From Candidatus Micrarchaeota archaeon (lineage in GTDB: Archaea > Micrarchaeota > Micrarchaeia > Micrarchaeales > CABMGC01): a DNA stretch of 64,000 nt. The position numbers were made by a program, and so were the translations under genes. The stretch's first letter is position 1, and each line of letters begins with the position of its first letter. Positions 9,667 through 25,630 of this stretch are shown piece by piece. A model generated the notes under the pieces. That model saw only the letters and a list, made by a program, of their open reading frames with translations, searched no databases and had not been told where the DNA came from. The DNA lies in NCBI GenBank assembly GCA_028867335.1, contig JAGWGN010000002.1, forward strand, positions 9,829 through 73,828, read 5' to 3'.

Positions 9667-10821
9667 GTGATATCTATGCAAAAAGCATTCGAAACCCTGC
9701 CTTCTGAATTCATTTCCGCGACCAAAATTTGCGATTACAAGACCCCAATTTCAGGGGTTTTAGGGAAGATAAAGTCCCTTGGGGGAGTCGTGGTCTTCAA
9801 GGGAAAGGAGTACTACGGCATAGTTGACAGCCGAACCATTGCAAACATGGGCGTGCTCAAGATGGACGCCAAGTTCCCGATCGGCAAGTTCGCAAAGAAG
9901 GTGCCTCTGCTCGACCAGTCGACCTCGATCGAGAAGAGCATCCACTACTTCTTCAACTCGGCAACAAAGTCCCTTCCATATACCGAGGGGGGAAAGATCA
10001 AGGGAGTGATAAAACGAGAGATGCTGCTTCGAGCAATACTCTCTCTCCACATGGTCTCAAGCTACAAGGCGGGATACGCAATGTCCGCGCCGGTTGTGGC
10101 GATAGACAAGGAGTCCAGCGTCTCACAGGCAAAGTCCACCATGGAGAGCCGCAAGGTCAACAAGATAATCGTGGTTGACGGGGGGAAGATCTTCGGAATC
10201 CTCTCCTACAACGACATACTCTCTGAATTCACGGAGCTCAACGCCCGCCAGACAACCGAGAAGAAGACGAAGGCGTACCTCGACAAGATCGGCACCACAA
10301 GCGTCTCTGACATATGCAGCAGGCAGGTCTACAGGATCGACCACAGCAGGCCGATAGAGGAGGCTATAAAGAGCATGATCGAGCTCAAGATCTCATCGCT
10401 GCTTGTCACAAAGGCGGACAAGCCAGTAGGGATACTTACCGTCCGTGACGTCTTTGAGCTTGTCACGACAAACACAAGCGCGGTCGCGGAGAGGATATTC
10501 ATATCGGGCCTCAACTCTCGCACAAAGGAGTTCGAGGACGAGATAAAGGTGGAGCTAGAGAAGCTTGCCGACAAGGTGGACCGCTTCGGCAACTTGAAGA
10601 CCGACTACATCTCGCTGCACATAAAGAACCCGAAGGCAAAGAACTACGAGATGAAGGGCAGGCTCTCGCTTTCAAAGGGCGGCACGATCAGCGCCTCCTC
10701 ATCGGGCTTCTCGCTTGACGACACGCTGAGCAAGCTTGTCGACAACCTCTACAGGGAGGTCAAGGTTAAGAAGGAGATAATACTGGGAAGCAAGAAGGGG
10801 GACAGGGAAGAGTATGAATAA
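9667..10821 (+). CDS. four-CBS (two Bateman modules) protein with C-terminal HPF/RaiA (ribosomal S30Ae)-like domain
   Basis: 384 aa (GTG at 9667, or ATG at 9676). Four CBS-like segments are visible, e.g. KIIVVDGGKIFGILSYNDILSEF and SLLVTKADKPVGILTVRDVFELV. The last ~105 aa (ISGLNSRTKEFEDEIKVELEKLADKV...YEMKGRLSLSKGGTISASSSGFSLDDTLSKLVDNLYREVKVKK) follow the beta-alpha-beta-beta-beta-alpha pattern of hibernation factors. Confidence 0.6.
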   Translation: MISMQKAFETLPSEFISATKICDYKTPISGVLGKIKSLGGVVVFKGKEYYGIVDSRTIANMGVLKMDAKFPIGKFAKKVPLLDQSTSIEKSIHYFFNSATKSLPYTEGGKIKGVIKREMLLRAILSLHMVSSYKAGYAMSAPVVAIDKESSVSQAKSTMESRKVNKIIVVDGGKIFGILSYNDILSEFTELNARQTTEKKTKAYLDKIGTTSVSDICSRQVYRIDHSRPIEEAIKSMIELKISSLLVTKADKPVGILTVRDVFELVTTNTSAVAERIFISGLNSRTKEFEDEIKVELEKLADKVDRFGNLKTDYISLHIKNPKAKNYEMKGRLSLSKGGTISASSSGFSLDDTLSKLVDNLYREVKVKKEIILGSKKGDREEYE

Positions 10822-11287
10822 TCGCCGCCAAGTTAGGCTTCAGTCAAGCTTCGAGCTACTGATAACGCTCTCGTTCGGTCTTGCGATCCTTCTTCCGCTG
10901 GTAGTATTCGCATTCATACAGCTCGCCAACGCCAACTCCGCGGTCTCCGCGGTCGCGGCGCAGCAGGTCGCATCCAAGCTCGCCAGCGCAGCGGCGCTGG
11001 TTGGGAGCCAGGGCGCTCCGGCAAAGCAGATAGTCCAGATCGCAATGCCGACGGGGGTGCAGTACATCTACATCGGCACGCTGACAAACGGGATAGGGCA
11101 CTCGATAATATTCGCCATAAGGTCTCCGACAGGGCTCAGTTACATAACCGCATACACTCCGATAAACGTGAGCGGAAATCTTGGGGGGATCTCGTCAACA
11201 GGAACATACCTTGTCAACGTGTCCGCCCAGGCACAGTGCCCACTGCAGCTCGCACTGCCGTGCGTGTACATGAAACCTGCGGTGTAG
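10814..11287 (+). CDS. pilin-like protein (class III signal peptide-like N terminus)
   Basis: 157 aa. MNNRRQVRLQSSFELLITLSFGLAILLPLVVFAFI is a basic stretch, then Q-S, then a ~22-aa hydrophobic helix, as in archaeal type IV pilin precursors. First gene of the + strand surface operon. Confidence 0.6.
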   Translation: MNNRRQVRLQSSFELLITLSFGLAILLPLVVFAFIQLANANSAVSAVAAQQVASKLASAAALVGSQGAPAKQIVQIAMPTGVQYIYIGTLTNGIGHSIIFAIRSPTGLSYITAYTPINVSGNLGGISSTGTYLVNVSAQAQCPLQLALPCVYMKPAV

Positions 11288-11291
11288 CCAT

Positions 11292-14200
11292 ATGAAGTCA
11301 AAAGCGCAGATCGCAATCGAGTTCCTGATAGTCTTCGCCTTCATACTTCTCGTCTTCCTCTTCCTCTTCTCGCTCATAACTCAGCAGCGCGCCGTGATAC
11401 AGAACACCCAGACCTACTCACAGCTCCAGCTAATCGCGCAGAACCTAGCGCTACAGATAAGCCGGGCGGCAATCTCCGGAAACGGGTACAGCGCGCAGCT
11501 CCCGCTGCTCACATCTGTCGGCGTGACCCCATACAACGTCTCGATCACAAAGAGCGGCACAGTCATAGTGACCTCCACAACCGCCCAGCAGGCTGTCAGG
11601 ACGACGGCTTTCAGCAGCGTGCAGAAGCTCACGTCAAACCCTGCATATCTTGCCTCCGGAAGCACCACAGTCTACAACCTCCCGATCGCAAACGGCTCCG
11701 TATCAATACAGAACTCTTTCGGCACCATATGCATCGATTATCAGTGCCCGACCACATCGAACGTGAGCTCGTCCATCTCGCTCTCAAGCCAGGTCGTGCA
11801 CGCCGCGCTTTTCAGCGGAGTATACGACTACATCAATGCCTCCTCCACCACGGTGAACACGCTCTCGCAGTCCAGTATCACGATAAGCTTCTGGGTTGAT
11901 CCGGAGGCACTCGGGCACGGGACTGGCTTTAGGGGCTCGGACCAGCTCGTCTGCATCGGGGACAGGGTGTCGAGCATACAGCTGGGGTACCAAAGCGACG
12001 GGAAGATCAACGTGAACGGGTGGCAGGGCCCAAGCTCAACATCAACGAACTCACTTTCGCTAAACAGGTGGTACTACATTGCCTACACGCAAAACGCCGT
12101 CTCGAATTCGCTCTACATTAACGGCGCCCTGGAGAGCTCGCTGGGGGGATCGGCTGGAACAACAATGACCAGGAACGTCTCGATCGGGGGCAGCAACCAG
12201 AACAACGGCGGAAAGGCGTGCCAGCTTTCCTCAAACTCCCTTAATGGGGAGATGGCAAATGTCCAGCTCTACAACGCTGCGCTAACCCCGAACCAGATTC
12301 TCTCAGAATACAGCGCTGGCATCTCCGCAGCCCCACCAAACACCGCAAATGTGGTCGGATGGTGGCCGCTTAGCGGGGACGCAAACGACTATAGCGGAAG
12401 CGGGATGAGGGGAACAATCCATGGCCCGCTTCTCTTCACCTCAGTCGCCCAGCTCTCCGCCCTTGTGCGCAGTTCCTCTGGCCAGCCAGAGTCAAATGTC
12501 CTTGTCGGGTTCTCCACCACGCTAGGTAACTTTACCTGGGGATTGGGGTCCAAACAGTTTAAGGCAAACTACACCAACTCAAACGGGATTGCGACGGTCT
12601 TTCTAAACCAGCAGGGCAACAACGGGCAGGCGCTTGTGAGGGCCACGACTCTGAACGGGAACTTTTTGCCCCAGTCATCGCTTGTCGCCTGGTATCCGCT
12701 AAACCTCGGGCAGGGCAGCGTGGCTGGTGATGTGAGCGGGAACTCAAATAGCGGCAACTTCGCAAGCTCACAGAACTCGCTTCCGTTCTGGAGCCTGCCA
12801 AACTATGTTGCATCATTTGACGGGCACACAAGCTACATAACCGTTGCAAATTCCCCGACCCTAAACTTCAACACTCAGCTCACCTACTCCATATGGGTCA
12901 AGAGGAGCGGCCCAGGCCAGCAAAATCCGAGGGCAATCGTGCTCTCAAGATACGGGACATACATAGACCTCTGCTATAATTCCCAGCCCCTCTTCAGCCT
13001 TGCCCTACTCAGCGGATCAAAGCTTATCCAAGGTGGCAGCTGCATGCAGCCCGGCGTGTGGACAAACTACATCGCAACATACGACGGCACCAACGCACGC
13101 CTCTATCTAAACGGCGCGCAGGTCGCAAATGCAATCTCGCCTAGCACAATCCTCAACTCCGCAAATGCCCTAACAATCGGCGAGTACGACAACTCCCTCT
13201 TCAACCTAAACGGCTCGATCGCAAACGTGCAGGTTTACACCCAGGCACTAACCCAAAGCCAGGTCTCGCAGCTCTATCAGGAAGGTATCTCGGGAGCGCC
13301 AATAGCAAACACCGCAGTTGGCGGCTGGTGGCCGCTTGATGGGGATGCGATAGACTACGGCCCGAACGGAAACAACGGCGTCATATTTGGGAACCTCACA
13401 TTCACCCCGACAGCAAAGGCGATCCCGCCCCAGCAGATCTCAAACGGAAACACCAGCAAGGTTCTCGCGGCGTCATTTGGCGCATCAAATAGCTATGTAA
13501 GCTACTACCAGGGCCAGAACACCGTGCTCTCAACCGCATCTGTATTCGGGTGGATAAACACCTCGGCAAACAATGAGATGATACTCCAGATACAAAACGG
13601 CTCAAGTAGCAACCCCCTCATAGCGCTCGGCATAGGCGGGGCGCTGAGCCCTGCGGGAAACGCAAACCAGCTTGTCGCATACGTGAGGAACAGCCTTGGC
13701 GGCACTGGCGGGGGCACGATGCCTTTCAACTCAAACATCGTTGTGAACAATAATGCATGGCACCAGGTGGGCCTAACGCTAAGCGGAACCCAGGCGACGC
13801 TATATGTCGACGGGATACAGGGACCACAGACGACATTCTACGGCTCCTTCAATCTGGCAAACACCCCCGCAAACCAGATAATTCGGCTCGCCGGAATCGC
13901 CCCCGGCTCCGGAGCATCGCAGTACAACGGGCTGATCTCTGACGTGCAGGTGTACAGCACCAACCTCACAAGGTCTCAGGCGCAGCAGCTCTACCAGGAG
14001 GGGATAGAGGGTCCCCCGGTCCCTTCGGCAAACGTCTTTGCATGGTGGCCCCTTAGCGGAAACTCAAACGACTATGGGCTAAACGGCATAAACAGCACTC
14101 TGGCCTCGAATGTCGTCTACAAAAACGTTAGAAACTACGCTCCGATCCTAGCACAGAACTCAAACTACTCCGGAGTGAACTTCAACGGGCAGGGAAGCTA

Positions 14201-14708
14201 CATAAACTTCAACGGCATCCCGACCCTCTCATCAAGCGCAATCACAGTGGATGCATGGGTGAATGAGCCGGCCTCGCATCAGGGTGAGATAGTGCGCGCA
14301 TCCAACTCAGTGAGCAGCTCCATAGGGACGTCGCTTAGGGACCAGGGCAACGGGATGTACCAGTGGCATGTCGCGAGCGCTACGAACTCGATAGACCTCA
14401 TCGCTCCGATCCCCTCGTTTAGCTCCTGGCACTTCGTGGCGGGAACCTATGACGGGACCACCTCAAAAATCTACGTTGACGGCGCGGCCAGCAACTCAAT
14501 GACAACAGGCCTGCAGCTTCTCCCCACAAATAACCTGGGCATAGGGGCATGGTCATTCTCTTCCCCTCCCTCAAACTTCTTCAACGGCTCTATAGTAGAC
14601 GTTCAGATCTACAGCACTGCGCTGAGCGCAACGCAGATTCAGCAGCTATACAGCTCGCAGATCCCCCCTTCCGCTTCAACGACAGTTCCGCTGAGTTGGT
14701 ACCCATGA
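11292..14708 (+). CDS. giant pilin-like surface protein with four LamG/ConA-like lectin domains
   Basis: 1138 aa. N terminus MKSKAQIAIEFLIVFAFILLVFLF is pilin-like. Four units each end in G.IANVQ.Y..aL...Q...LY.EGI.G.P and are followed by WWPL.GD.NDYSG, which matches Laminin_G_3-type domain boundaries. Rich in N-x-S/T sequons. Confidence 0.8.
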   Translation: MKSKAQIAIEFLIVFAFILLVFLFLFSLITQQRAVIQNTQTYSQLQLIAQNLALQISRAAISGNGYSAQLPLLTSVGVTPYNVSITKSGTVIVTSTTAQQAVRTTAFSSVQKLTSNPAYLASGSTTVYNLPIANGSVSIQNSFGTICIDYQCPTTSNVSSSISLSSQVVHAALFSGVYDYINASSTTVNTLSQSSITISFWVDPEALGHGTGFRGSDQLVCIGDRVSSIQLGYQSDGKINVNGWQGPSSTSTNSLSLNRWYYIAYTQNAVSNSLYINGALESSLGGSAGTTMTRNVSIGGSNQNNGGKACQLSSNSLNGEMANVQLYNAALTPNQILSEYSAGISAAPPNTANVVGWWPLSGDANDYSGSGMRGTIHGPLLFTSVAQLSALVRSSSGQPESNVLVGFSTTLGNFTWGLGSKQFKANYTNSNGIATVFLNQQGNNGQALVRATTLNGNFLPQSSLVAWYPLNLGQGSVAGDVSGNSNSGNFASSQNSLPFWSLPNYVASFDGHTSYITVANSPTLNFNTQLTYSIWVKRSGPGQQNPRAIVLSRYGTYIDLCYNSQPLFSLALLSGSKLIQGGSCMQPGVWTNYIATYDGTNARLYLNGAQVANAISPSTILNSANALTIGEYDNSLFNLNGSIANVQVYTQALTQSQVSQLYQEGISGAPIANTAVGGWWPLDGDAIDYGPNGNNGVIFGNLTFTPTAKAIPPQQISNGNTSKVLAASFGASNSYVSYYQGQNTVLSTASVFGWINTSANNEMILQIQNGSSSNPLIALGIGGALSPAGNANQLVAYVRNSLGGTGGGTMPFNSNIVVNNNAWHQVGLTLSGTQATLYVDGIQGPQTTFYGSFNLANTPANQIIRLAGIAPGSGASQYNGLISDVQVYSTNLTRSQAQQLYQEGIEGPPVPSANVFAWWPLSGNSNDYGLNGINSTLASNVVYKNVRNYAPILAQNSNYSGVNFNGQGSYINFNGIPTLSSSAITVDAWVNEPASHQGEIVRASNSVSSSIGTSLRDQGNGMYQWHVASATNSIDLIAPIPSFSSWHFVAGTYDGTTSKIYVDGAASNSMTTGLQLLPTNNLGIGAWSFSSPPSNFFNGSIVDVQIYSTALSATQIQQLYSSQIPPSASTTVPLSWYP

Positions 14709-15250
14709 AACTACAATTCCTCTCATTCGATGCGATCTTTGCGATAGTCATCTTCACATTCGCGGTCTCGCTCTTAGCATTCATCTGGTACACTGTGAAC
14801 TCACAGCTCTCCATAGGTTCGGGCAACTCGGTGCAGAGCATGCAGCTGCAGCTTGAGGGCGTCTCGGAGAAGATACTGGGCTCCGGATACCCGCAGAACT
14901 GGTACTCCAACGTGGACACAAGCAACACGCTTACATGGGCGAACATCAGCGTCGGCCTGGGCAACGGGGTCAGCGGCGCGATCTCGATCTCCAAGCTTGC
15001 GACATTCGCCTCGATGGCTAACGGCAACTACCTCTACACAAAGCCTCTTCTTGGCGTCGGTTATGACTACTACATAGTGATCAGCACCGCAAACTACCAC
15101 ATGACAATCGGCAAGAAGCCAGCCGCGCAGATAGGCAGCGCCCTCAACGGAGTCACGCTGCAGAGCACAAGCAAGTCTGTGACGATAAACGGGCAGCCGG
15201 GCAACATGCAAATCTTTATATGGACAAACTCTTCATTTGGGATTGGTTAA
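14705..15250 (+). CDS. small pilin-like protein
   Basis: I prefer the start at 14705 (ATGA overlap with the upstream stop): MKLQFLSFDAIFAIVIFTFAVSLLAFIWY..., 181 aa. The portion of track ORF 14549..15250 upstream of this ATG lies inside the previous gene. Confidence 0.55.
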   Translation: MKLQFLSFDAIFAIVIFTFAVSLLAFIWYTVNSQLSIGSGNSVQSMQLQLEGVSEKILGSGYPQNWYSNVDTSNTLTWANISVGLGNGVSGAISISKLATFASMANGNYLYTKPLLGVGYDYYIVISTANYHMTIGKKPAAQIGSALNGVTLQSTSKSVTINGQPGNMQIFIWTNSSFGIG

Positions 15251-15251: not shown

Positions 15252-17414
15252 ATGCGACTCGTTATATTCACACTAGACTCCATTTTCGCCCTCATAATAG
15301 CAGCGGCAGGAATCTCTCTGCTCGCATATTTCTTCTACACCCCGCAGACCACGACTGTTCTCTCATACTCCTCAGCGGCCTCGATATTACAGGAGCTCCT
15401 GTCCGCAAACTCAAGCTCCGTCTCCTCTTCCAATTTCCTCTTTAGCAGCATAGCATTCCAGTCAAATGCGAGCGGGGAGACCTGGGATTCCTTCATGCGC
15501 GACTCTATGCACAATGCAGGCAATCCTCACGGCCCACTTTCCCCCTTGGTATCATTCATCTATAGGCCAGCGGCCGGCACTCCCTCAATGGCGGTTGCGG
15601 ATTACGGGAAGATATTTTTCTATTCCGGAAACACAATCTACTCACTTGACGCAGCAAGCGGCGCTCTTTTCTGGAGCAAGAACATTGGACAGACTCCTCC
15701 AAGCCAGCCTGTCATTGCATCAGGGCTTTTGATCTACTCAAACACAATAAATCTTACCGCCATAAATCCGACCACAAATGCGATAGTCTGGAGTGCGCCA
15801 AATACACTTGTTGCGCCTTCAATGACCTCAAATCTCCTCTCCTACGGCAACAAGCTTTACTACGGGACGGGGACTAGCCTTGCCGCTGTCTATGCTGCAA
15901 ACGGAACCCAGTCATGGACGTACAACCTTGGCACTGCGGTGAATGGAATAGTGATGGACGCTGGATCGCTTGCCGCATCATACGCCAGCTCGATCGCCCT
16001 GCTAAACGATTTCGGCACCAGCGGAAACGTGATATGGAGCAAGCCAATCGGGTCCGGAGTTACAGTGATGGCATCGAGTCCTTTCAACAGCCTACTCTCC
16101 TTCTTCAGCGGCTCGACGGCAAACGCGATGTATGTGGACAACTCCCTCGCCGCAGGATTCCCTTACGCAGTGGTTGGTGGATCAGCATATTCCACAATCT
16201 ACAACGGCACAATAATCTACCAATCCTCAAACGCGATCACTGCAGTATCGACAAACGGGCTCTCGTTGTGGACCTACACTGCCCCTGTCGCATACGGGAC
16301 TGCGACTCCGAATAGCTATCCTGTCATCACCTCAAAGATGATCTACTCCACATGGTCGAATGGGTACCTTGTCGCGCTAAATTATCCTAGCGGAACCTTC
16401 GCGTGGGCGACAAACGTTCCATATGGCTCTCCGCTTACAATTTCGGGAGCCGCTTACGGAAGGCTTTATCTTACCGCGGGTTCTAATGTGATTGCCTACG
16501 GATCGTGCAACAGCGGCACGGGCGGATCACTTCTGCTTATTGCCGCAACTATGTACGCAAACAATCAGGGGAGCTGCGCAGACGCCCTGGTGAACAGCGT
16601 CTACCCTATGACAAACTACTCTATTTTTCTAAACAACACCTTCGCCCCGTCGCTCAGCCTCACCAGCTTCGACGGATCCACCAGCCACATCGAGAATCCC
16701 ACAAAAGCCCCGCTAAACGGGCTCCAGACCTTCACGATCAGCGCATGGATATACCCTACAAACACGGTGAGCGGGCCGTACATCTACAGCGAGGGCTCGC
16801 CTTCGCTTTCAATGGACTTTGGCATAACATCGGGCAACGCGCTCACGATCTCCACAACAAATTCCGGCACCCCGCAAACTTTCACGAGCTCACTTAGCGT
16901 ACCCCTCAACAAATGGTCATTCGTCACTGGCGAGCTTTCGATCGGAGGCACCGCCGGGACATTCATCCTCTCCCTAAACGGTCAGCTGCAGAGCGGCGCA
17001 GGGCAGCCCGAGTCCAGCGCTGGCGCGATATTTAGCGGAATAGGATACAGTGTCGGCAACTCGATAGGCCAGGCGGGCAGCTTCTTTGCGGGAAACATTG
17101 CTAATGTGCAGATATACAATGCAACCCTGACCCAATCCCAGATACTGCAGATATACCAGCGCGGGCTTCAGGGCAGCCCGCTTTCTGGCGTCGGGATACA
17201 GGCATGGTACCCTCTTGCCGGCGACTCGAATGACTACAGCGGCCTGGACAACACCGCCTACCCATTCGGCGTCTCCTATCTCCCATCAAACTACCTCCCT
17301 TCCGGATACACCAACTCCTATCAGATCAGCACTGCGGGCATAACACTCCCGATTCAGAATTACACTACTGGCCTCTCGAGGCTATACAAGGTTAGCGTGG
17401 TATCATGGCGTTGA
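15252..17414 (+). CDS. pilin-like N terminus + PQQ/BamB-like beta-propeller + LamG domain protein
   Basis: 720 aa from the ATG at 15252 (MRLVIFTLDSIFALIIAAAGISLLAYFFY). About 7 repeats of the ...G.iY......l.Al[DN]...G...W... type are present (e.g. IFFYSGNTIYSLDAASGALFWSKNIG, LTAINPTTNAIVWSAP, LVALNYPSGTFAWATNV). The C-terminal LamG unit ends GNIANVQIYNATLTQSQILQIYQRGLQGSP..AWYPLAGDSNDYSG. Confidence 0.7.
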   Translation: MRLVIFTLDSIFALIIAAAGISLLAYFFYTPQTTTVLSYSSAASILQELLSANSSSVSSSNFLFSSIAFQSNASGETWDSFMRDSMHNAGNPHGPLSPLVSFIYRPAAGTPSMAVADYGKIFFYSGNTIYSLDAASGALFWSKNIGQTPPSQPVIASGLLIYSNTINLTAINPTTNAIVWSAPNTLVAPSMTSNLLSYGNKLYYGTGTSLAAVYAANGTQSWTYNLGTAVNGIVMDAGSLAASYASSIALLNDFGTSGNVIWSKPIGSGVTVMASSPFNSLLSFFSGSTANAMYVDNSLAAGFPYAVVGGSAYSTIYNGTIIYQSSNAITAVSTNGLSLWTYTAPVAYGTATPNSYPVITSKMIYSTWSNGYLVALNYPSGTFAWATNVPYGSPLTISGAAYGRLYLTAGSNVIAYGSCNSGTGGSLLLIAATMYANNQGSCADALVNSVYPMTNYSIFLNNTFAPSLSLTSFDGSTSHIENPTKAPLNGLQTFTISAWIYPTNTVSGPYIYSEGSPSLSMDFGITSGNALTISTTNSGTPQTFTSSLSVPLNKWSFVTGELSIGGTAGTFILSLNGQLQSGAGQPESSAGAIFSGIGYSVGNSIGQAGSFFAGNIANVQIYNATLTQSQILQIYQRGLQGSPLSGVGIQAWYPLAGDSNDYSGLDNTAYPFGVSYLPSNYLPSGYTNSYQISTAGITLPIQNYTTGLSRLYKVSVVSWR

Positions 17415-20152
17415 AAAACGGAAATAACGGCAGGAAGGGCCTTTTCATGACGATCCTGGTCCTGATTCTCTTCTTTTTGATACTAGGCGAGCTCTTCTCA
17501 TTTGCGCTCCTCACCATGAGCTACAACAACGTAGACCAGTCATCCGCCCTGGGAGCAAGCTCGCTAAACTACGGCAAGTCGCTCTCGGCCAGCGCGAGCC
17601 TCTTCGCCAATGCGAGCCTAAGCCGCGCGATATACACCCTCGCAAACTACGAGCTCAATGCGACGATGAGGCAGGATAACTTCATAACCAACACAAGCCA
17701 GTACCTTACATATCTGATTGTTAACGGCACGCTTCCTGGCGTCTCCGCAAACAGCATACCGGCAAACTATCTGCTCAAGAACATGGGCAATTTGACGCTT
17801 GCGAAATACAACTCCTCCCTCGCACTGCTTTTAGGCAGCAGTGCCGTCTCGATAAAGGTAAACCAGACCAAGCCTCTGATCTTCCAGGCAAGCCCCTACT
17901 CCCTCTCCGTAAGCTACCTTGAGTACGTCGCCCTCAACTCGACTGGCGGTCGCTTTGTTTACCCAATAGGCGTGAACGCCACGATCTCACTAAACGGCAC
18001 TCCGGACCTCCTCTACTACCAGCAGGGAGTAGCCAGGAACATAAGGTTTGCATCCCTCTCAAACCTCACCTCTGTCTTTCCGGCAAACGTTGCAGCGACG
18101 CAGAATCTGCCCCTGAACGCAACAGCAGGCAACTACCTCGCGAGCATCTACGGCCCGATTTATAACGTACCGAGCGGGGTGACCTGTGCAAACCTTGAAA
18201 GCAGTCTCCCAGCGTCATTCACCTTCTCCCCAAACAACCAGATGCTGATCATCGCGACCCCCAATGCGATCGGGATAACAAACGGGGGCTCTGGACCGAA
18301 CTGCGCGCAAAAGTACGGTGGCCTGATAACATATGCGATAAACAGCGTGGCAAACCCGCCTGCAATGCCCTGGATCTCCTATCCCACAACATCTAACTAC
18401 CTAAGCAATCTCAGAAACGGGCAGCAGGTGCTGCTGCTTGGAAACACCCTCTCGGTTTACAACATACAGAACCTGATAAAAGCAGCATCGAGCGGCTACT
18501 ATTTTGCATCTCCATTTACGCCCTCTTACTTGGACAGGGCACAGGGATCTCTGACAAGGCAGAATCCAAGTGGAATATTCTCATTTGCAAACTACAATCT
18601 GCAGGCGGCCACCTTCAACGGGCCAAACGCATACTCGTATGTGAGCACAGCGAGCAACGCGCTTCTTATGCCAAACAGCATAACGATAAGCCTCTGGGTC
18701 TACAGCCCGAACGTGATGAACACAAAGGACATAATAGAAAAGGGGATAGGGGCCGGGGGCTACCAGTATTTCGTCAGGACCAAGGGGACAGGAACTCCCT
18801 CATTAAACAACTTGGAGCTCGCCTTTGCAAACACCGCCCGCAACTATGACCTTCTTCCCGCATCATCGTCGCTCACCCTCAATTCGCTTGGATGGCATCA
18901 CATACTCCTCTCAGTGAACGACATCTCGCAGATAGGGTACGCATACATGGACGGCGCGCTGAAAGCAACGAACACCCCGTCCTCCGTCGCGTTCGCGCAA
19001 AACTCCAACGCCCTGATGATTGGCGGATCCCCATGGGATGTAGGATTCAACGGATCAATTGCAAATGTCCAGATCTACAACGTCTCTATCAACTCGCAGC
19101 AGGCCGCCCAGCTCTATCAGGAAGGGATATCCGGCGCGCCGCTAAACAACAACGCTCTCGTCGGATGGTGGCCTCTCAACGGAAACCCGGGCGACTACAG
19201 CGGGTACAACTACAACAGCGTTCCGTCAAACACAATCTTCCAGGTGCCAAAGAACTATACGCGCGACAGCATCTTTGGCTACGCCGTCCCCACTGCCACC
19301 TCTGCAATCCCCGGGCTTCTTGGATGCAAGACCCCCTCCCAGTGCTCAAGCTCAAGCGCGGCCCTCGTCTATGCTGGCTATCTCCCCCTTGAGCTGCAGC
19401 AGAACTCGCAGCAGGTTCTCGGACTCAACGGGGTCGTAGGATATCTAAACATCGGTTCAACACTAAGCAACACAGTTGCAGGCGGCTACAACACCGCAAC
19501 ATTCTGGATGCTCTGGAAGGGGATGAATGCGCAGGGCGAGATGCCGATCGAGTTTTCAGGGACCGGATTAGACCTCTACTTCCAGACCGCTAGCTGCTTT
19601 GGCTTCAACACCCACAGTAGCGATATCTGGGGGATAAACCCTACAAACACGCTCAACAAGTGGGTCTTTGTAGCGGCGACCTTCTACAACGGCTACACCT
19701 CAAACGGCCTTCTCTACATCAACGGCGCAAACCAGATCCTCTCGCAGTGCGCTGGCACCCAGCACAGCATACTCGCATCATCGAACGTGAGGATAGGCGG
19801 GGGCTACTCATTCAACGGCTCGATCGCAAACTTCCAGCTCTACAATCAGAGCCTGAGCGCAAACCAGATAGGCCAGCTGTATCGCGAGGGGATAGCCGGA
19901 ACCCCGATTCTCAGTGCAAATCTCGTCGGCTGGTGGCCGCTGAACGGAAACTCAAACGACTACAGCGGCTTTAGCAACAACGCTGTTCCTGCGGGCAATG
20001 TGATCTATACCTCTTTTGCAAGCACGAGCTACAACACGTACAACGCCGTTACGGGCTCATTCACCCTGGGCTCGTACAATGCGCCTGGCGTATCCACGAT
20101 AGTCAGCACGGGGAACGAGTGGCAGTCGATAGGGCTTCCAAGAGCTGGATAA
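17405..20152 (+). CDS. membrane-anchored surface protein with two LamG domains
   Basis: 915 aa. N-terminal anchor GLFMTILVLILFFLILGELFSFALL. Two LamG termini: NGSIANVQIYNVSINSQQAAQLYQEGISGAP..GWWPLNGNPGDYSG and NGSIANFQLYNQSLSANQIGQLYREGIAGTP..GWWPLNGNSNDYSG. Confidence 0.7.
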   Translation: MALKNGNNGRKGLFMTILVLILFFLILGELFSFALLTMSYNNVDQSSALGASSLNYGKSLSASASLFANASLSRAIYTLANYELNATMRQDNFITNTSQYLTYLIVNGTLPGVSANSIPANYLLKNMGNLTLAKYNSSLALLLGSSAVSIKVNQTKPLIFQASPYSLSVSYLEYVALNSTGGRFVYPIGVNATISLNGTPDLLYYQQGVARNIRFASLSNLTSVFPANVAATQNLPLNATAGNYLASIYGPIYNVPSGVTCANLESSLPASFTFSPNNQMLIIATPNAIGITNGGSGPNCAQKYGGLITYAINSVANPPAMPWISYPTTSNYLSNLRNGQQVLLLGNTLSVYNIQNLIKAASSGYYFASPFTPSYLDRAQGSLTRQNPSGIFSFANYNLQAATFNGPNAYSYVSTASNALLMPNSITISLWVYSPNVMNTKDIIEKGIGAGGYQYFVRTKGTGTPSLNNLELAFANTARNYDLLPASSSLTLNSLGWHHILLSVNDISQIGYAYMDGALKATNTPSSVAFAQNSNALMIGGSPWDVGFNGSIANVQIYNVSINSQQAAQLYQEGISGAPLNNNALVGWWPLNGNPGDYSGYNYNSVPSNTIFQVPKNYTRDSIFGYAVPTATSAIPGLLGCKTPSQCSSSSAALVYAGYLPLELQQNSQQVLGLNGVVGYLNIGSTLSNTVAGGYNTATFWMLWKGMNAQGEMPIEFSGTGLDLYFQTASCFGFNTHSSDIWGINPTNTLNKWVFVAATFYNGYTSNGLLYINGANQILSQCAGTQHSILASSNVRIGGGYSFNGSIANFQLYNQSLSANQIGQLYREGIAGTPILSANLVGWWPLNGNSNDYSGFSNNAVPAGNVIYTSFASTSYNTYNAVTGSFTLGSYNAPGVSTIVSTGNEWQSIGLPRAG

Positions 20153-20170: not shown

Positions 20171-21160
20171 CTATACTCCGCTTATCGAGCTGAAGATTCC
20201 GCCTATTGCCGCGCCTACCACAAAGTAGATCCCTAGCGCAATTATCAGGAAGACGGGTAGATACCTTATCCCCCTGATCACGGTCCCGTTTGCTATCGCC
20301 GAGACGATGAATGCGCCGAATCCGGAGATCATGACTATCGCGATCAACGCAAAGTTGTGGTATGCGCCCACGGTTATCTGCGGTGCGGACGGCCTGAGGA
20401 ACGAGATTCCAGCGGTTGGCAATCCTCCCGGGTTCTGCGCAAGTATCCCCACCCACACCTGGTTTGTGACCGTGATCATCTGGGTTGTGAGCGCATAGAG
20501 CACCGGCGCTCCGACAAGCGCTGCAAATGCGATGAAGATAGTGTACATGAAGAGCTGTCCGGATATCTCCTTTTGGACTATCTGCTGGTTTCTAAGGTCC
20601 TTTGCCACCTGGTTGAGCAGATCGGTCATCCCGCCTCCGTACTGTAGCGCCTCGATTATCATCCTGATTGTGTGCTTTAGCTCAAGGGAGCGGTACCTCT
20701 TGGCGAGAAGAAGCAGCGAGTTCTGCAGAGTCTCCCCTGCGTAGAGGTTCTTTGTTATCAGCTTTATGTCCTCGCTGAAGAACTTGAACTCAGGCCTTGC
20801 GGCAAAGATCATCGCCTTGTCCAGCGAGATCCCGCTCCTAACGTTCGCAGCGGTTATCTGCAGGTAGTCCGGGAGGATCGACTCGGTGAAGTTCTTCCTC
20901 TGCTCAATCTTGAACTCAAGGTAGAGATAGATTCCTATCTCGTAGAGTATGGCCACGACTCCGCCCAGCAGCCCTCCGATTCCCACGTTGTAGCCCAGCG
21001 CAACCGTGAGGAAGGAGGCGATGAAGATGAAGAGCGCAATCCCGCCGACCACAGCCACCCTGACGAAGCTGTCGACAGTGGTCCTCACTCCGGCGAGGTC
21101 AAGCTCCTCGGATATGAAGACCGCGATGTTTCTTGATATTAGCTTCTCAAATGACACCAT
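20171..21160 (-). CDS. type IV filament platform protein, single T2SS-F domain (FlaJ/PilC/TadC-like half)
   Basis: 329 aa. N-terminal TM pair, a helical cytoplasmic block (LQITAANVRSGISLDKAMIFAARP...LQNSLLLLAKRY) and C-terminal TM helices. This is half the size of a typical archaeal FlaJ/PilC. Confidence 0.65.
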   Translation of the reverse strand: MVSFEKLISRNIAVFISEELDLAGVRTTVDSFVRVAVVGGIALFIFIASFLTVALGYNVGIGGLLGGVVAILYEIGIYLYLEFKIEQRKNFTESILPDYLQITAANVRSGISLDKAMIFAARPEFKFFSEDIKLITKNLYAGETLQNSLLLLAKRYRSLELKHTIRMIIEALQYGGGMTDLLNQVAKDLRNQQIVQKEISGQLFMYTIFIAFAALVGAPVLYALTTQMITVTNQVWVGILAQNPGGLPTAGISFLRPSAPQITVGAYHNFALIAIVMISGFGAFIVSAIANGTVIRGIRYLPVFLIIALGIYFVVGAAIGGIFSSISGV

Positions 21161-21164: not shown

Positions 21165-22214
21165 TCACATCGCGTAAACCGGCCTCGAGCCCCTCATAAT
21201 GTTCAGGAAGACTATCTGCAGGAAGAATATGAACACCAGCGCCGCAATCAGCGTAGTCTGGTCCACAGTGAAGATGTTTATGAAGGTGGTGAGTATCGCG
21301 GCAATCGCGATTCCCATGCTCGGGAAGATGACTCCGAAGAGCATGTAAAACATCGCGAGTGCGTTAAGCCTCTGCCCGTACCTTCTCAGCTCGATGACCC
21401 TCTCCTGCGCAACCTCGTCAAGCACGCTCTGCAGCGCTGCGACGATGTCTGCGCCAGACTTTATGCTCACGCTCGCCTGCAGCATCATCCTCTTGAACGT
21501 CTTGGAGGTGCTCTTGTTGCTCACCTCATCTATCGCCTGCTCTATCGGAAGGCCGAGCTGCACCTGTTCGACCACCTTCGCGAACTCCCTGCTCGCCGCC
21601 CCGTATCCGGTGCTGACCGCAGTCATGGCGTTGAAGAGCGGCATTCCCGATCGCATCCCGATGACTATATCTCGCATTGCAAAGAGTATGTCGCGCTCCA
21701 CCTCGGTCCCGACGTTCTTGCTGCGGTCTATCGGGTACTGTATGAACTTGTTGAAGAGGGCGTAGAATATGGCGACCCCGAGTATTATCCCGAATATCGG
21801 CGAGAGCCCGACCTCGTAGATCGCAACTGAGGTGACCAGGGCGACCATTATCGCCGTAGCGGCAGCGTACTTGAACATCCTCTTGACGAAGTCGTATGGC
21901 GTTGAGCGTATGCCCTGCTCCCTTAGCGAGATCTCAAGGTCCTTGTGCATCGCAGCGGTCTTCGCTATGAAGATCTGGAAGTTGCTGTACTTCTTTCCTG
22001 GGGCCGCTGCCTGCTGCGCAGCTGGCTTTTGCGGAGGCTGCGGTGCGCTCATCTTCTGCATCTCCTTGGAAAAGCTCTGGGGGGTGTAGATGGGCCTTGA
22101 CTTTATCTTGAAAAATAGGAACTTCCTCGGTTTTGTGAACGAGAGCGGCGTCTTGGCAGGCTCAGCGCCCTTGGGCGCTGGCTGGTCGCTACCCTTCTTT
22201 TTAAAGAGCATCAA
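21165..22214 (-). CDS. type IV filament platform protein, single T2SS-F domain (FlaJ/PilC/TadB-like half)
   Basis: 349 aa. Pro/Ala/Gln-rich N-terminal tail, then the same TM / helical block / TM arrangement (FAMRDIVIGMRSGMPLFNAMTAV...ALQSVLDEVAQERVIELRRYGQRLN). Lies 4 nt upstream of its paralog. Confidence 0.65.
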   Translation of the reverse strand: MMLFKKKGSDQPAPKGAEPAKTPLSFTKPRKFLFFKIKSRPIYTPQSFSKEMQKMSAPQPPQKPAAQQAAAPGKKYSNFQIFIAKTAAMHKDLEISLREQGIRSTPYDFVKRMFKYAAATAIMVALVTSVAIYEVGLSPIFGIILGVAIFYALFNKFIQYPIDRSKNVGTEVERDILFAMRDIVIGMRSGMPLFNAMTAVSTGYGAASREFAKVVEQVQLGLPIEQAIDEVSNKSTSKTFKRMMLQASVSIKSGADIVAALQSVLDEVAQERVIELRRYGQRLNALAMFYMLFGVIFPSMGIAIAAILTTFINIFTVDQTTLIAALVFIFFLQIVFLNIMRGSRPVYAM

Positions 22215-22230
22215 AACTCACAAATAAGCA

Positions 22231-22884
22231 TTAGTTATTCGTGTTTAAAAGCCTATTCCCAATATCCGAGAGAAGTTTGTCTCTCGCCGCAATCAGGGGC
22301 TGCTGCGACTCGTCCTGCGGCTTCCCGCGCTGCCTTGAGGCATTAACCCCCGCAATCTCAAGCCGCACTATTTTCAGCTGCTCCGCATCGAGCGCGTTCT
22401 GGTCAAGCGCATCAAGTATCCCCTCAAGCTCGTGCATCTGGTCCTGGAGGGAGAGGCTTGGCAGCACAAGCTTTTTTGTCTGGATCTTCGAGACCCTACT
22501 CTCCACCATCTGCTCGAATCCCTTGCTCACATTGCCCAGCATCTTGCCGACGTCCTTTGCTGCGTCGAGCATCTCTTTGTCTAGCACCCCGATCCTCTTT
22601 TGGATATCCGCCTCGCCGATCCTCTGTCTTATCTGGCTCGCTTTCTCGGCCACGTTGACGTTCGGTACTATCTGCACCTTCTGCGCAGCGGCCTGCTGCT
22701 CTGCAGTGACAAGCATCTCTATCCCGCCTATCTTTTTGCATGCGGTGTCGTAGTCGTATCCCAAGATCTTCACCTGGTCCGCCAGCGCCTGGTTCGCATC
22801 CACGACAAGCACCTTCTGCTCGCTGCCCTGCTCTATCGCTTCAAGCGCCTGCGCAACAGTGGTGTAATCCGTATCCATTATCAT
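22231..22884 (-). CDS. hypothetical coiled-coil protein of the pilus motor operon
   Basis: 217 aa, acidic and helical. 4-nt overlap with the ATPase gene upstream. Confidence 0.5.
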   Translation of the reverse strand: MIMDTDYTTVAQALEAIEQGSEQKVLVVDANQALADQVKILGYDYDTACKKIGGIEMLVTAEQQAAAQKVQIVPNVNVAEKASQIRQRIGEADIQKRIGVLDKEMLDAAKDVGKMLGNVSKGFEQMVESRVSKIQTKKLVLPSLSLQDQMHELEGILDALDQNALDAEQLKIVRLEIAGVNASRQRGKPQDESQQPLIAARDKLLSDIGNRLLNTNN

Positions 22885-24404
22885 TCGCCCTCCTTGCCCC
22901 TGAAGAGGTCCTGCGAGTACGGCGAGTTCTTCGCCACTATCTCAAGCACCCTCGCCTTGTCCTTGTAGTAGTTTGCAACTATCCATCCGACGCTGTCCAC
23001 GTCAAAGAGGTTGTTTGCCACCATCCAGTTCAGCACCGAGCTCTTCTCCTTGATGTCGACTGCGATCTCCCCCTTGCTGTATCCGCCGTAGAGCATCATT
23101 ATCTCGGCGAGCCTTGAGAGGTCGCTTATCTGCACAAACGAGTCGCTTCTAAGGTTCCACCTGTATATGACGTTCGCGTCCCCGGTCTTTAGCATCTCCC
23201 CGAACTCGAGCACCCTTCTGATCCCGAGCCTCCTGTGCCTAAAGAGCGTGACCACGCAGCCGATCGCGTTGAGCAGGAGCTTTGGTATGTTTATCGGAGG
23301 GTTTGACATCCTGATTATAGTGTCCTGCGCGCTGTCTGCGTGCACTGTCCCGTAGACCGCGTGTCCGGTGTGGATCGCCTCAAAGAGCGTCTCCGCATCC
23401 TTCTCGGTTCGAATTTCCCCGATGAGCATGATGTCAGGCCTCTGCCTGAGCGCGTTTATCATAAGATTGTAGAGCGTGATCTCCCCCTTCCCCTCGGGGT
23501 TCGGCTGCCTTGTGGACATTGGCACCCAGTGCAAGAACGATGGAAGCGTGAGCTCCCTGTCGCTTTCCACCGATATCACCCTGTGGTTCTCCGGTATGAA
23601 GACCGAGAGCGCGTTGAGGAAACTCGTCTTTCCGCTTGCGGTCCCGCCCGAGATGAGTATGCTGATCTCGTTCTCAACGCACATCCAGAGTATCGCGGCA
23701 ATCTCTGCCGAGATCGTCTTGTTTGCCATGAGCGCCGGCATCGTCCACGGGTTCTTGGCGAACTTCCTGATTGTGATCGTGTTCCCCTTCTGCGAGATCG
23801 GATAAAGCGTCGCGTTGACTCTCGATCCGTCCGGCAGCTCCGCGTCCATCATCGGCGAGAGGTTTGAGATCTGCCTGCCCACCCTTCTCCCTATCTGCTC
23901 CGCGTCGTCGTAGATCATGTTCTCTTCGTGTATCTTGATGTTGGTCTTGCACCAGCCGAACTTCTTGTGGAAGACCCACATGGGCTCCTTGGAGTTGTTC
24001 ACGACGATCTCCTCCAGGTTGTCGTCGGCAAGCGGAAGCTCAAGGTCCCCTAGGCCGAGCATGATGTTTATGACGTACGCTATCAGTATCTTCTTTACCT
24101 CGGGAGTCGTGCTCGGCAGGTACTTGTCTATCATCAGGTTTGCCGAGGCGATGTATTTCTGGTTAAGCTCGTCTAGATACTCCCTGTCCTCGATCCTTGT
24201 CGGGTCGATCGGGACAAGGGAGAGAAGCTCGCTTCTAAGCGAGACAAGAAGTATTTTCGTTGCCTCCCCCAGGCCAGGAACCGTGACCTCGTACATCGGC
24301 ACGAACTCATTTGGCATCTCCGATATTTTGACGTTGGCCTTGAGCCCGTGCGCGTCAAGCTGGTATTCCTCGTAGGTGTTGGCGTTCCCCTCCTCCATCA
24401 TCAC
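22881..24404 (-). CDS. type II/IV secretion-family ATPase (FlaI/PilB/GspE-type)
   Basis: 507 aa. Walker A SGGTASGKTSFLNAL, then LIGEIRTEKDAETLFEAIHTGHAVYGTVHADS (Walker B / His box region of T2SS-E ATPases). Confidence 0.85.
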   Translation of the reverse strand: MMMEEGNANTYEEYQLDAHGLKANVKISEMPNEFVPMYEVTVPGLGEATKILLVSLRSELLSLVPIDPTRIEDREYLDELNQKYIASANLMIDKYLPSTTPEVKKILIAYVINIMLGLGDLELPLADDNLEEIVVNNSKEPMWVFHKKFGWCKTNIKIHEENMIYDDAEQIGRRVGRQISNLSPMMDAELPDGSRVNATLYPISQKGNTITIRKFAKNPWTMPALMANKTISAEIAAILWMCVENEISILISGGTASGKTSFLNALSVFIPENHRVISVESDRELTLPSFLHWVPMSTRQPNPEGKGEITLYNLMINALRQRPDIMLIGEIRTEKDAETLFEAIHTGHAVYGTVHADSAQDTIIRMSNPPINIPKLLLNAIGCVVTLFRHRRLGIRRVLEFGEMLKTGDANVIYRWNLRSDSFVQISDLSRLAEIMMLYGGYSKGEIAVDIKEKSSVLNWMVANNLFDVDSVGWIVANYYKDKARVLEIVAKNSPYSQDLFRGKEGE

Positions 24405-25630
24405 ACTCCTTTGCCCTCCTCTTCCTCCCCAGCGCCGCTCAATCTGTCAAGGTCCTGCTTGCTCGTCTTCATCTTTGCGTCCAGCCCCTTCGTCCTTCCG
24501 CCGAGTTTGGACACCTTCTTCTCGATCTCGCCGACCTGCACGACCTTCTCGACGTCTGAGCCCTTCAGCATATCGACGCTCTTAAGCTCCCCCTTTAGCA
24601 GGTTCGCCTCCTTAAGTATCGACTCGTGCTCCTTTTTTATCTCGGCAAGCCGTGTGTTTAGGGCTCCGAGCTGCTCGTTTAGGTTCGCTATCTCGCCGAA
24701 ATCCTTCTTCAGCAAAGCCACCTTGTCTGTTATCGACTTCACCTTTCCCTCAGCTAGGGGATAGAGCCTGTCTATTCCCTGCTTCACGTTTGAAATGTTG
24801 TTCTCGATCGCGGTCTTGTCCCTTTCCGCGTCATGCTTAAGCCTTGCGCTCTCCCTCTTTGCGTACTTCTCGAGCTTCTCGTTCTCGCCGAGCTGGTTCG
24901 CCTGCCTCTGCACGGCCTCCTCCAGGGACTTCATCTCCGAGTAGATCCCGTCGTGCATCTGCCGCAGCTGCGCGCGCTTGTCCACTATCATCCTCTCGAA
25001 CTCCTGGTCCAGCCCCCTTACCGATTCCTCATATCTCTTCATCTTCTCCTTGATGTCGCTGACCACCCCCTTCACGTCCGATTGGCCTGTGCTGAAGTTC
25101 TGTATCTTCCCTGCCATCTCCTCAAGGGCGCGCATCTCAGTTTCAAGAGTGGAGGATATCTTGTCCACCCTGTCCTTCTCCATCTTTATGCTTCCGTAGT
25201 GCTTCTCGACCTCATGCCCTATCCTCTCGAGCTCGTCCAAATCCTTTTTCACCTGTCCCGAGTTCTTCTTGAACGAGACGTCTGCAGATGCGGCAATCTT
25301 GCTGAGGTTGGATATCCTCCTGTCAAACTCCTGCAGCACGTTCATCTGCGCTACAAGCTCGGTCTCTACGGACTGCTTCTTTAGGTCCAGGGAGTTTTTG
25401 TAAGTGGCGACATCCACGTTAGTGACAGAGAGAGGCGCGACGAACATCTTCCCTATCTTGTAGGTTATCTTGACGATGTTTGCCTTCTCAAGCACGCTTG
25501 CCCAGTCCTCAACCACCTTTTCGCTTACCTTGAGCTCCTCGGCAAGCTTGCTTTCCTCCATCTCGCCGTGCTTGTTTAGGTAGTCGACAAGCGCATCGAT
25601 GCCAGTTGTTGTTAAGCCCTCCGCCGCCAT
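24401..25630 (-). CDS. winged-helix-like N-terminal domain + long coiled-coil protein
   Basis: 409 aa. First gene of the - strand motor operon. N terminus is GIDALVDYLNKHGEMEESKLAEELKVSEKVVEDWASVLEKANIVKITYK, followed by ~300 aa of heptad-like Glu/Lys-rich sequence. Confidence 0.55.
   Translation of the reverse strand: MAAEGLTTTGIDALVDYLNKHGEMEESKLAEELKVSEKVVEDWASVLEKANIVKITYKIGKMFVAPLSVTNVDVATYKNSLDLKKQSVETELVAQMNVLQEFDRRISNLSKIAASADVSFKKNSGQVKKDLDELERIGHEVEKHYGSIKMEKDRVDKISSTLETEMRALEEMAGKIQNFSTGQSDVKGVVSDIKEKMKRYEESVRGLDQEFERMIVDKRAQLRQMHDGIYSEMKSLEEAVQRQANQLGENEKLEKYAKRESARLKHDAERDKTAIENNISNVKQGIDRLYPLAEGKVKSITDKVALLKKDFGEIANLNEQLGALNTRLAEIKKEHESILKEANLLKGELKSVDMLKGSDVEKVVQVGEIEKKVSKLGGRTKGLDAKMKTSKQDLDRLSGAGEEEEGKGV

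Follow-up and report, generated by a model that had tools for sequence, protein, structure and literature searches.

A candidate pilus locus of a micrarchaeote in which pilin-like proteins carry LamG domains

Described pilus systems and the composition of the locus

A close counterpart of the locus described here is the pilus locus MIA14_0170–0177 of 'Ca. Mancarchaeum acidiphilum' Mia14 (Golyshina et al. 2017, PMC5498576), which was classed with Methanococcal-type pili and encodes a CpaF family ATPase (MIA14_0170), TadC proteins (MIA14_0172 and MIA14_0173) and a secreted pilus component (MIA14_0176). Some of the expanded LamG genes of Mia14 are linked to pilus loci, and this archaeon has no archaellum and a single FlaK-like peptidase encoded elsewhere in its genome (PMC5498576). 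Here we analyse a locus at positions 10814–25630 of a 64,000-nt stretch of DNA (assembly GCA_028867335.1, contig JAGWGN010000002.1, positions 9,829–73,828 of the forward strand; this whole stretch is called the window below, and all coordinates are given in its own numbering), in which LamG domains sit on proteins that themselves open with pilin-like N termini. We read it, with a probability of roughly 0.62, as the locus of a System 1 (Epd/Tad-like) pilus whose five minor, probably tip-type subunits show lectin modules for adhesion. Homologues of its ATPase at 65–89% identity come from Micrarchaeota/Micrarchaeales metagenome-assembled genomes; the organism, judged by its sequences, is a micrarchaeote (DPANN) and is probably acidophilic.

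Related designs have been described in other archaea and in bacteria. In clade 1 archaeal loci a pair of TadC genes is accompanied by at least five minor pilins and by two large proteins of adhesin-like type (Makarova et al. 2016, PMC4858521). According to a 2026 preprint, System 1 occurs in methanogens and DPANN, and the Epd cluster includes a protein that combines a class III signal with a sugar-binding domain (bioRxiv 10.64898/2026.04.22.720090). More than 1,200 bacterial modular pilins, with PF13385 (Laminin_G_3) among their commonest modules, were catalogued in a census confined to bacteria (Raynaud et al. 2021, PMC8179133), and in S. sanguinis the modular minor pilin PilC, which bears a lectin, belongs to a tip complex (Shahin et al. 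2023, PMC9934059). That Micrarchaeota have a pilus locus with linked LamG genes, and that bacterial pilins can bear lectins, is therefore already known. The Mia14 paper does not call the LamG proteins pilins or describe their N termini (PMC5498576), and in the literature we found no statement that LamG proteins themselves have pilin-type N termini, that they are members P2, P4 and P5 of a DPANN-wide cassette (introduced below), or that the P4 slot alternates between a VWA domain and propeller/LamG modules; work on the cultured Micrarchaeon ARM-1 yielded nothing on pili genes or LamG. The gain offered here is a sharper annotation and a set of testable hypotheses, not a new kind of system.

A sequence-only reading of the window had proposed two convergent operons at 10814–25630, and the open reading frames (ORFs) lie exactly there, in two tightly packed operons with 18 nt between them. 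Neighbouring genes on the + strand are packed tightly or overlap, and 4-nt overlaps occur in the − strand operon too. The genes are as follows (P1 to P5 being the cassette families).

10814..11287, + strand: g1 (P1), small pilin-like protein, 157 amino acids (aa); hhalign, orthologue site
11292..14708, + strand: g2, P2-type pilin module (about 170 aa) plus four LamG domains, 1138 aa; Pfam, hhalign
14705..15250, + strand: g3 (P3), small pilin-like protein, 181 aa from ATG; alignment, hhalign, AlphaFold2
15252..17414, + strand: g4 (P4), large pilin-like adhesin candidate, 720 aa; Pfam, hhalign
17405..20152, + strand: g5, P5-type module (about 400 aa) plus two LamG domains, 915 aa; Pfam, hhalign
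20171..21160, − strand: m1, TadC/FlaJ-type platform protein, 329 aa, one T2SSF domain; Pfam T2SSF 5.9e-16
21165..22214, − strand: m2, second TadC/FlaJ-type platform protein, 349 aa, one T2SSF domain; Pfam T2SSF 1.2e-14
22231..22884, − strand: m3, charged cytoplasmic protein, 217 aa, between the ATPase and platform genes; no significant family
22881..24404, − strand: m4, secretion/assembly ATPase of the GspE/FlaI/CpaF superfamily; Pfam T2SSE 1e-33
24401..25630, − strand: m5, coiled-coil protein, 409 aa, first gene of the machinery operon; coiled-coil matches

Three starts call for comment. A longer g3 ORF from 14549, which overlaps g2, was dropped in favour of the ATG at 14705, where the orthologues begin and where the start overlaps the g2 stop (ATGA). 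For g4, a TTG start at 15237 was dropped for the ATG at 15252, again the point at which orthologues begin. Because the database version of m4 has 505 aa, its true start is probably two codons downstream.

The − strand operon contains an assembly ATPase of the GspE/VirB11 superfamily and a TadC/FlaJ/PilC-family platform present as two genes; the T2SSE and T2SSF models, as well as Laminin_G_3 on the opposite strand, matched in Pfam. In comparison with PDB entries m4 matched 2oap (5.1e-63), FlaI (1.5e-52) and CpaF (2.7e-48); its best PDB and NCBIfam matches are A. fulgidus GspE and FlaI, not CpaF, and the sources label its close homologues Micrarchaeota CpaF/type II secretion system (T2SS) ATPase or "CpaF family protein". 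Related loci were collected by scanning GTDB species genomes for the ATPase, which gave 80 loci, and two more, L084 and L085, were added through g3 homologues. The platform genes m1 and m2 adjoin the ATPase in all related loci that reach far enough (80 loci).

The remaining two machinery genes are less readily named. The sequence-only reading had listed on this strand an ATPase, two platform proteins and two coiled-coil proteins; the first three and the coiled-coil protein m5 were borne out, whereas m3, the supposed second coiled-coil protein, gave no significant family in Pfam or NCBIfam scans. Homologues of m3, 26–58% identical, stand at the same position in Micrarchaeales loci only. m5 matches only coiled-coil types (SMC, Rad50 and SpiroCoCo), and its N-terminal HTH_DeoR match of 19.9 bits, below the cut-off of 21, may reflect a winged-helix domain. 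In most DPANN loci a homologous coiled-coil gene lies 5′ of the ATPase; in Micrarchaeota loci with an ATPase about 51% identical (L019, L026, L027 and others) the coiled-coil gene upstream of the ATPase is longer, at 560–600 aa.

Several better-known systems were set aside. Pfam and NCBIfam scans of the locus matched no archaellin, no FlaF/G/H and no other Fla accessory family, FlaC_arch appeared only at E 0.2 inside the m5 coiled coil, and the NCBIfam FlaI model gave 243.9 bits against a cut-off of 550; with archaellins and Fla components missing, an archaellum is ruled out, in line with the sequence-only reading. Membership of the T2SS was rejected on model scores and missing components. TafC of the haloarchaeal Tat-fimbriae (PMC11821415) is an archaeal fimbrial subunit with a LamG-like domain, and the LamG domains of the window match the TafC model at 1.5e-27. 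That score, 96.7 bits, is far below the cut-off of 410, and the Tafi subunits are Tat-exported whereas the window proteins carry no twin-arginine signal, so this assignment was rejected as well.

Two described systems remain close. The named genes of the Mia14 locus match m4, m2, m1 and g3, and unnamed genes occupy the places of m3, g5, g4 and g2, an orthology drawn from gene order and annotation. With System 1 and the Epd pilus of Methanococcus maripaludis the locus shares one ATPase, two TadC-type genes, large proteins of adhesin-like type and a set of at least five minor pilin-like genes, together with Gln at +1 in g1–g3, as in EppA-dependent pilins; the major pilin of such systems is usually encoded elsewhere. 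It differs from Epd in that its large proteins carry Laminin_G_3 domains and a PQQ-type propeller, with DUF2341 not matched in Pfam, in that neither an EppA peptidase nor a FleN/MinD ATPase gene lies between 9667 and 27601, and in that a coiled-coil protein precedes the ATPase. On the design of the locus, System 1 is the best-supported assignment.

N termini, the five-gene cassette and the LamG modules

The products of g1–g5 all open with a leader of 3–12 residues containing K or R, followed by about 20 hydrophobic residues, as had been noticed for the five + strand products in the sequence-only reading. With the predicted cleavage point marked by an arrow, the N termini are MNNRRQVRL↓QSSFELLITLSF in g1 and MKSKA↓QIAIEFLIVFAF in g2, both with Glu at +5; MKL↓QFLSFDAIFAIVIF in g3 and MRL↓VIFTLDSIFALIIA in g4, both with Asp at +6; and MALKNGNNGRKG↓LFMTILVLILFF in g5, which has no acidic residue nearby. 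The predicted sites (g1 RL↓QSSFE, g2 KA↓QIAIE, g3 KL↓QFLSFD, g4 RL↓VIFTLD and g5 KG↓LFMTI) follow a single register, K/R at −2, G/A/L at −1 and then Q/I/V/L, which is the same in every orthologue; the RL↓QSSFE site, for example, recurs in the g1 orthologue of L084, a protein 72% identical. The acidic pattern is kept from Woesearchaeota to the window, P1 and P2 having E at +5, P3 and P4 having D at +6 and P5 having no acidic residue. In the g3 alignment of 26 homologues, at a mean column identity of 56%, positions Q4, F5, S7, D9, F12, A13 and F17 are invariant. A conserved pattern of this kind would be expected of pilin alpha-1 helices and not of plain membrane anchors.

The AlphaFold2 model of g3 (pLDDT 80.7) consists of a 57-residue N-terminal helix (residues 2–58) and a four-stranded alpha/beta head, which modelled alone reached pLDDT 82.8 and pTM 0.76. 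Charged residues make up 5–6.6% of g1–g5 (5.1% in g1), compared with 20–36% in cytoplasmic neighbours, S/T/N/Q account for 28–38%, and N-glycosylation sequons occur at 1.1–1.9 per 100 aa; this is the composition expected for exposed surface proteins.

In loci of Woese-, Iain- and Nanoarchaeota, whose ATPases are 42–46% identical, the same machinery of ATPase and two platform proteins has five pilin-like genes at its side, and their order is also the same. Their families are as follows.

P1: about 140 aa, K/R-G/A-Q-x-S/A-x-E
P2: about 130 aa
P3: 170–390 aa, Q..S.D
P4: 620–1365 aa, ..FT[L/I]D
P5: about 330 aa, no acidic residue

Profile comparison with hhalign paired g1 with P1 (97.6%), g2 residues 1–175 with P2 (96.4%), g3 with P3 (99.1%) and g5 residues 1–400 with P5 (92.8%); the N-terminal 130 or so residues of g4 reached 82% with P4, and cross pairs stayed at or below 13%, one helix-only match excepted. 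Hidden Markov models (HMMs) of the P families gave matches in 24 of the 82 loci and recovered a full, ordered P1–P5 set in L072 and L076, both outside the training set. A profile search with g3/P3 returned 767 cluster representatives at E ≤ 1e-3, the sampled names being Micrarchaeota and Pacearchaeota, and the family includes ARM1_0845 of the cultured ARM-1; a homologue search with g2 residues 1–175 gave a single partial match. A VWA domain was present in 7 of 10 large proteins scanned from other DPANN, most of them P4. Because profiles pair one to one and gene order is shared, g2, g4 and g5 can be read as standard members of P2, P4 and P5 that have gained lectin or propeller modules. In g2 and g5 the architecture is that of modular pilins, an N-terminal pilin module with grafted LamG domains, given that stand-alone P2 and P5 exist.

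Seven LamG domains and one beta-propeller on three proteins of 720–1138 aa had been proposed from the letters of the window, and Pfam returned the same count: four Laminin_G_3 stretches in g2 (E 9.9e-75), PQQ_2 (1.4e-14) and one Laminin_G_3 (9.5e-21) in g4, and two Laminin_G_3 in g5 (9.4e-30). An HMM built from the window's own LamG domain found the seven domains that Pfam had found. The modules, all on the + strand, are these.

11805..12320, + strand: g2 LamG 1, aa 172–343; own LamG HMM E 3.3e-28, Pfam
12807..13286, + strand: g2 LamG 2, aa 506–665; own LamG HMM 8.7e-59, Pfam best stretch 510–659
13470..14003, + strand: g2 LamG 3, aa 727–904; own LamG HMM 2.6e-21
14178..14654, + strand: g2 LamG 4, aa 963–1121; own LamG HMM 9e-35
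15579..16259, + strand: g4 beta-propeller (PQQ_2 / Beta-prop_ACSF4 region); Pfam, with BamB-type matches reaching further
16662..17165, + strand: g4 LamG domain; Pfam, own LamG HMM 7.8e-24
18608..19126, + strand: g5 LamG 1, aa 402–574; own LamG HMM 1.6e-26
19424..19891, + strand: g5 LamG 2, aa 674–829; own LamG HMM 4.7e-27

Six of the seven LamG domains are followed by a common junction, roughly '...QLYQEGIxGxP...WWPLxGxxxDYSG'; after the last domain of g2 there is only a truncated form, '...VPLSWYP', which ends the protein. The sequence-only reading had called such large cargo on pilin N termini uncommon, a view that does not hold against the bacterial census cited above (PMC8179133) and the sugar-binding proteins of Sulfolobus, another case of the kind.

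The LamG genes travel with the machinery in close relatives. They adjoin it in 13 of the 14 Micrarchaeales-type loci that reach far enough, so that the co-conservation of LamG, ATPase and platform genes is confirmed and the grouping is not due to chance. All 11 loci that are long enough and have an ATPase identity of at least 65% carry LamG genes convergent to m1, and L084 and L085 also have LamG genes beside the machinery. On the far side of L085, HSP70/GrpE takes the position of the CBS gene, and g4 there is without a propeller. In L084 (12724–15376) two frames stand in place of g5, a P5 module of 399 aa and a LamG part of 478 aa, and the break falls precisely on the module junction; it could be a real split or an assembly frameshift. 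Among about 69 loci with an ATPase identity of 54% or less, none has a LamG domain within 10 kb. Since it is present in 13 of 14 near loci and absent from these distant ones, the LamG decoration is specific to one Micrarchaeal clade, in which it is strongly, not universally, tied to the machinery. Identities to L003 fall from 89% for the ATPase to 72% for g3, 51% for g4, 48% for g5 and 40% for g2; the LamG proteins evolve much faster than the machinery.

In several of the Micrarchaeota loci with an ATPase about 51% identical (L011, L026 and L027), a single small pilin of the 'KKGQA[V/M]MEYL[I/M]TYGLAL' type follows the platform genes in place of the five-gene cassette.

Proposed function and competing explanations

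From these parts we infer how the system might work. The N-terminal class III-type signal would insert each of the subunits g1–g5 into the membrane, where a prepilin peptidase encoded elsewhere would probably cleave after [K/R]-[G/A/L]. The ATPase and platform would go on to build a small complex from the subunits by way of their N-terminal helices; this complex would prime a filament and cap it, the filament itself consisting of a major pilin whose gene lies elsewhere. In the Micrarchaeal clade LamG domains would have been grafted onto P2 (four), P4 (one, with the beta-propeller) and P5 (two), and seven lectin domains plus one propeller would thereby be displayed at the tip of the filament or on a short pseudopilus. 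These modules likely bind glycans or glycoproteins on a host archaeon or a surface, which would lead to attachment and host recognition. The sequence-only reading had spoken of LamG 'pilins': the proteins are indeed pilin-like, yet they are best taken as minor, tip-type subunits, the major pilin being absent from the locus. Its suggestion of adhesion as the likely function is upheld at its core, with the host-contact role as a conjecture that follows from it.

Micrarchaeota and other DPANN archaea need physical contact with a host cell, and host recognition in them is largely obscure. If the proposal is right, the locus supplies a candidate host-recognition apparatus with seven lectin domains and a propeller on pilin-like stalks, the modular-pilin idea, so far catalogued only for bacteria, extends to archaea, and a conserved five-subunit cassette has had its adhesin modules swapped between lineages. 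Orthologues exist in cultured systems, for the whole locus in Mia14 and at least for the g3 family (ARM1_0845) in ARM-1.

The tip complex of S. sanguinis is one parallel. There, a lectin of the PF13385 type in PilC (ConA-like) or a VWA domain in PilB is grafted on a short pilin module with Glu5 and a class III signal, several such subunits (PilA, PilB and PilC) share one tip complex, and the complex adheres to glycans or proteins (PMC9934059, PMC8179133). The VWA module of PilB parallels the P4 slot, which holds VWA in other DPANN or propeller plus LamG in the window. There are differences as well: the bacterial pilins have Gly at −1, N-methylation and one lectin module per pilin, as against up to four in the window, and no sequence relation between the pilin modules is detectable. 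In S. sanguinis processing and tip location have been shown, whereas for the window both are inferred.

A second parallel is with PilY1 and FimU-PilVWX or GspHIJK, where four or five minor subunits also form a fixed-order set, GspK/PilX lacks the N-terminal acidic residue as P5/g5 does, and the large adhesin, PilY1, contains VWA and/or beta-propeller domains. Unlike P4/g4, which opens with a pilin-like N terminus of its own, PilY1 is no pilin, and the analogy is a functional one only, with no sequence or fold similarity demonstrated. As a tentative extension, which we hold to be possible although the odds are somewhat against it, P1–P5 might be a DPANN-wide, fixed-order tip or priming complex, the counterpart of GspHIJK or FimU-PilVWX plus PilY1, in which the adhesin slots are re-equipped per lineage. 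The slots would then hold VWA in Woese-, Iain- and Nanoarchaeota, and in Micrarchaeales propeller plus LamG, where P2 and P5 would bear additional LamG arrays; the module set would decide which host a symbiont can attach to; and the shift to Leu at −1 in g3 and g4 of one sub-clade would mark an altered peptidase specificity.

Several results weigh against a pilus with processed, lectin-bearing subunits. Of the class III signals that had been supposed, that of g2 (KAQIAI) fits a FlaFind-type pattern and those of g1, g3, g4 and g5 do not; Pfam Class_IIIsignal likewise reported g2 alone, at E 0.22 and 12 bits against a cut-off of 23.7. NCBIfam returned nothing for g1–g5, and g1 has no Pfam match either. 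In this genome g1, g3 and g4 have Leu just before the predicted cleavage point. The archaeal prepilin peptidases that have been characterised favour G/A/S at −1, and cleavage at these three sites is uncertain for that reason. A Foldseek search with the g3 model gave no significant match to any solved pilin, the best match being ribosomal protein S3 (E 6e-3, TM about 0.3). As the sequence-only reading had said of the prepilin peptidase, no A24 peptidase was found in the 64-kb window, either by GxGD regular expression or by Pfam among the multi-pass membrane ORFs; one multi-pass ORF outside that Pfam scan, 27852–28604, has Peptidase_M50 orthologues. A convincing major pilin was not found in the window either, and a DNA pattern for the Woese-type motif MEF/Y..TYG had no match there. 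Locus L083 (10001–16789; ATPase 64.5% identical) has only g3 beside its ATPase/TadC operon, with no LamG gene, g4 or g5 within 10 kb, and about 50 further Micrarchaeota loci, whose ATPases are about 51% identical, do not have the cassette next to the machinery.

The GxGD expression also found nothing in the ORFs of related loci L001–L082. In the 12 genomes in which the −1 residue of both g3 and g4 is readable, it is Leu in both proteins in four and Ala or Gly in both in eight, a co-variation that hints at a shared processing step, though it is confounded by phylogeny. Leu at −1 in g3/g4 occurs in the window and in loci L001, L003 and L007, and g1 has Leu in both readable genomes.

The best-surviving alternative is a structure without a long filament, in which the subunits are processed and assembled into a short surface-embedded stub, like a bindosome or pseudopilus, that anchors the lectin and propeller modules in or above the envelope. 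It would account for the absence of a major pilin gene from locus and window and for five different subunits that are all of minor-pilin type, and class III signals on large binding proteins, well established for Sulfolobales, have been proposed to occur widely (bioRxiv 10.64898/2026.04.22.720090). In the Sulfolobus bindosome (BasABC/BasEF), the large proteins that bind ligands have pilin-type N termini and rely on an ATPase and a platform for type IV assembly. Archaeal major pilins, however, are usually stand-alone genes elsewhere (PMC4858521), so their absence from a locus says little, and the Woese- and Nanoarchaeotal cassette loci do carry separate small pilin genes nearby, of the 'K[G/A]QAAMEF[I/L]MTYGWAILVV' type. 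Thin pilus-like filaments have been seen on cultured Micrarchaeon ARM-1 (bioRxiv 10.1101/2024.05.20.594898). Membership of the bindosome itself was rejected on the BasE model (129.8 bits against a cut-off of 1000), and bindosome cargo genes sit with ABC transporters, not with the machinery, whereas the window locus encodes no transporter. We consider the stub unlikely, while giving it more weight than the explanations that follow.

A scan of small ORFs in the window produced one other small pilin-like candidate only, a 51-aa ORF at 56958–57113 (− strand), MPAAGQVKA↓SMQGWAMGMILGG..., with a basic leader, one hydrophobic helix and no family.

Less probable still is that g1–g5 are ordinary surface proteins, Sec-inserted and held by an uncleaved transmembrane anchor, that work independently of the ATPase and platform and adjoin them by inherited synteny. 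The failure of the curated class III models and of the FlaFind-type pattern for four of the five proteins, the three Leu residues at −1, the lack of a peptidase in the window and of a structural match to pilins would all suit this explanation, and much of the surrounding region (TrkA, M50 and CDC48 genes) is syntenic too in close relatives. A plain anchor would nevertheless leave unexplained the invariant Gln at +1 and the Ser, Asp/Glu and Phe-Ala positions, as well as a family-specific acidic pattern that is held across phyla. Nor would inherited synteny readily explain why the same five families, in the same order and with the same machinery, recur in Woese-, Iain- and Nanoarchaeota despite 42–46% ATPase identity and different flanks, or why the LamG genes of L085 stay with the machinery in a different genomic context. 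We therefore regard plain anchoring as improbable and retain the reading of g1–g5 as minor subunits of a System 1 pilus.

That the ConA-like/LamG modules capture or cleave glycans for uptake, instead of acting as host adhesins, is very improbable: the ConA-like superfamily holds glucanases besides lectins, weak Pfam matches to sialidase and trans-sialidase accessory domains occur and the bindosome provides a precedent, but the only ConA-like families that score are the non-catalytic Laminin_G_3, Laminin_G and Pentaxin, no glycoside hydrolase family scores in the Pfam scan, the locus has no ABC transporter genes and the P4 slot in other DPANN holds a VWA adhesion domain.

Neighbouring genes and other features of the window

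Both operons are flanked by genes that touch them closely. Upstream of g1 lies the following gene.

9667..10821, + strand: CBS-domain protein, 384 aa; Pfam CBS 3.1e-26

Its stop overlaps the g1 start by 8 nt, and the same gene is found directly upstream of g1 in L084 and not in L085; it may be co-transcribed with the pilin operon, as a possible regulator. On the other side, the machinery operon is immediately preceded by three consecutive TrkA_N genes (25652–27601, − strand), 21 nt away from m5, an arrangement kept in L001–L006.

Farther away, the window encodes an exosortase/archaeosortase-family membrane protein (6855–8363, − strand; 5.1e-14) and two secreted proteins with seven and two PKD domains (57544–60717, + strand), which constitute further surface-protein machinery. 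A region at 43077–54183 (− strand) encodes a HerA/VirB4-like ATPase (DUF87 7.4e-15, AAA_10, TraG P-loop) and, after it, about eight membrane proteins; one of these has a PKD domain, and several are paralogues in which a transmembrane segment precedes an 'R-[S/A/G]-x-G-G' motif. This system may be a conjugation- or DNA-transfer-like apparatus; such elements in Mia14 were the subject of speculation by Golyshina et al. (2017, PMC5498576).

A third tRNA at 27692–27752 (− strand) scores 30 bits in Rfam against a gathering score of 29 and is not reported by ARAGORN. Finally, an ORF with a TTG start at 8923–9597 (− strand) overlaps tRNA-Cys (9525–9595), and because of this overlap its true start must lie further downstream.

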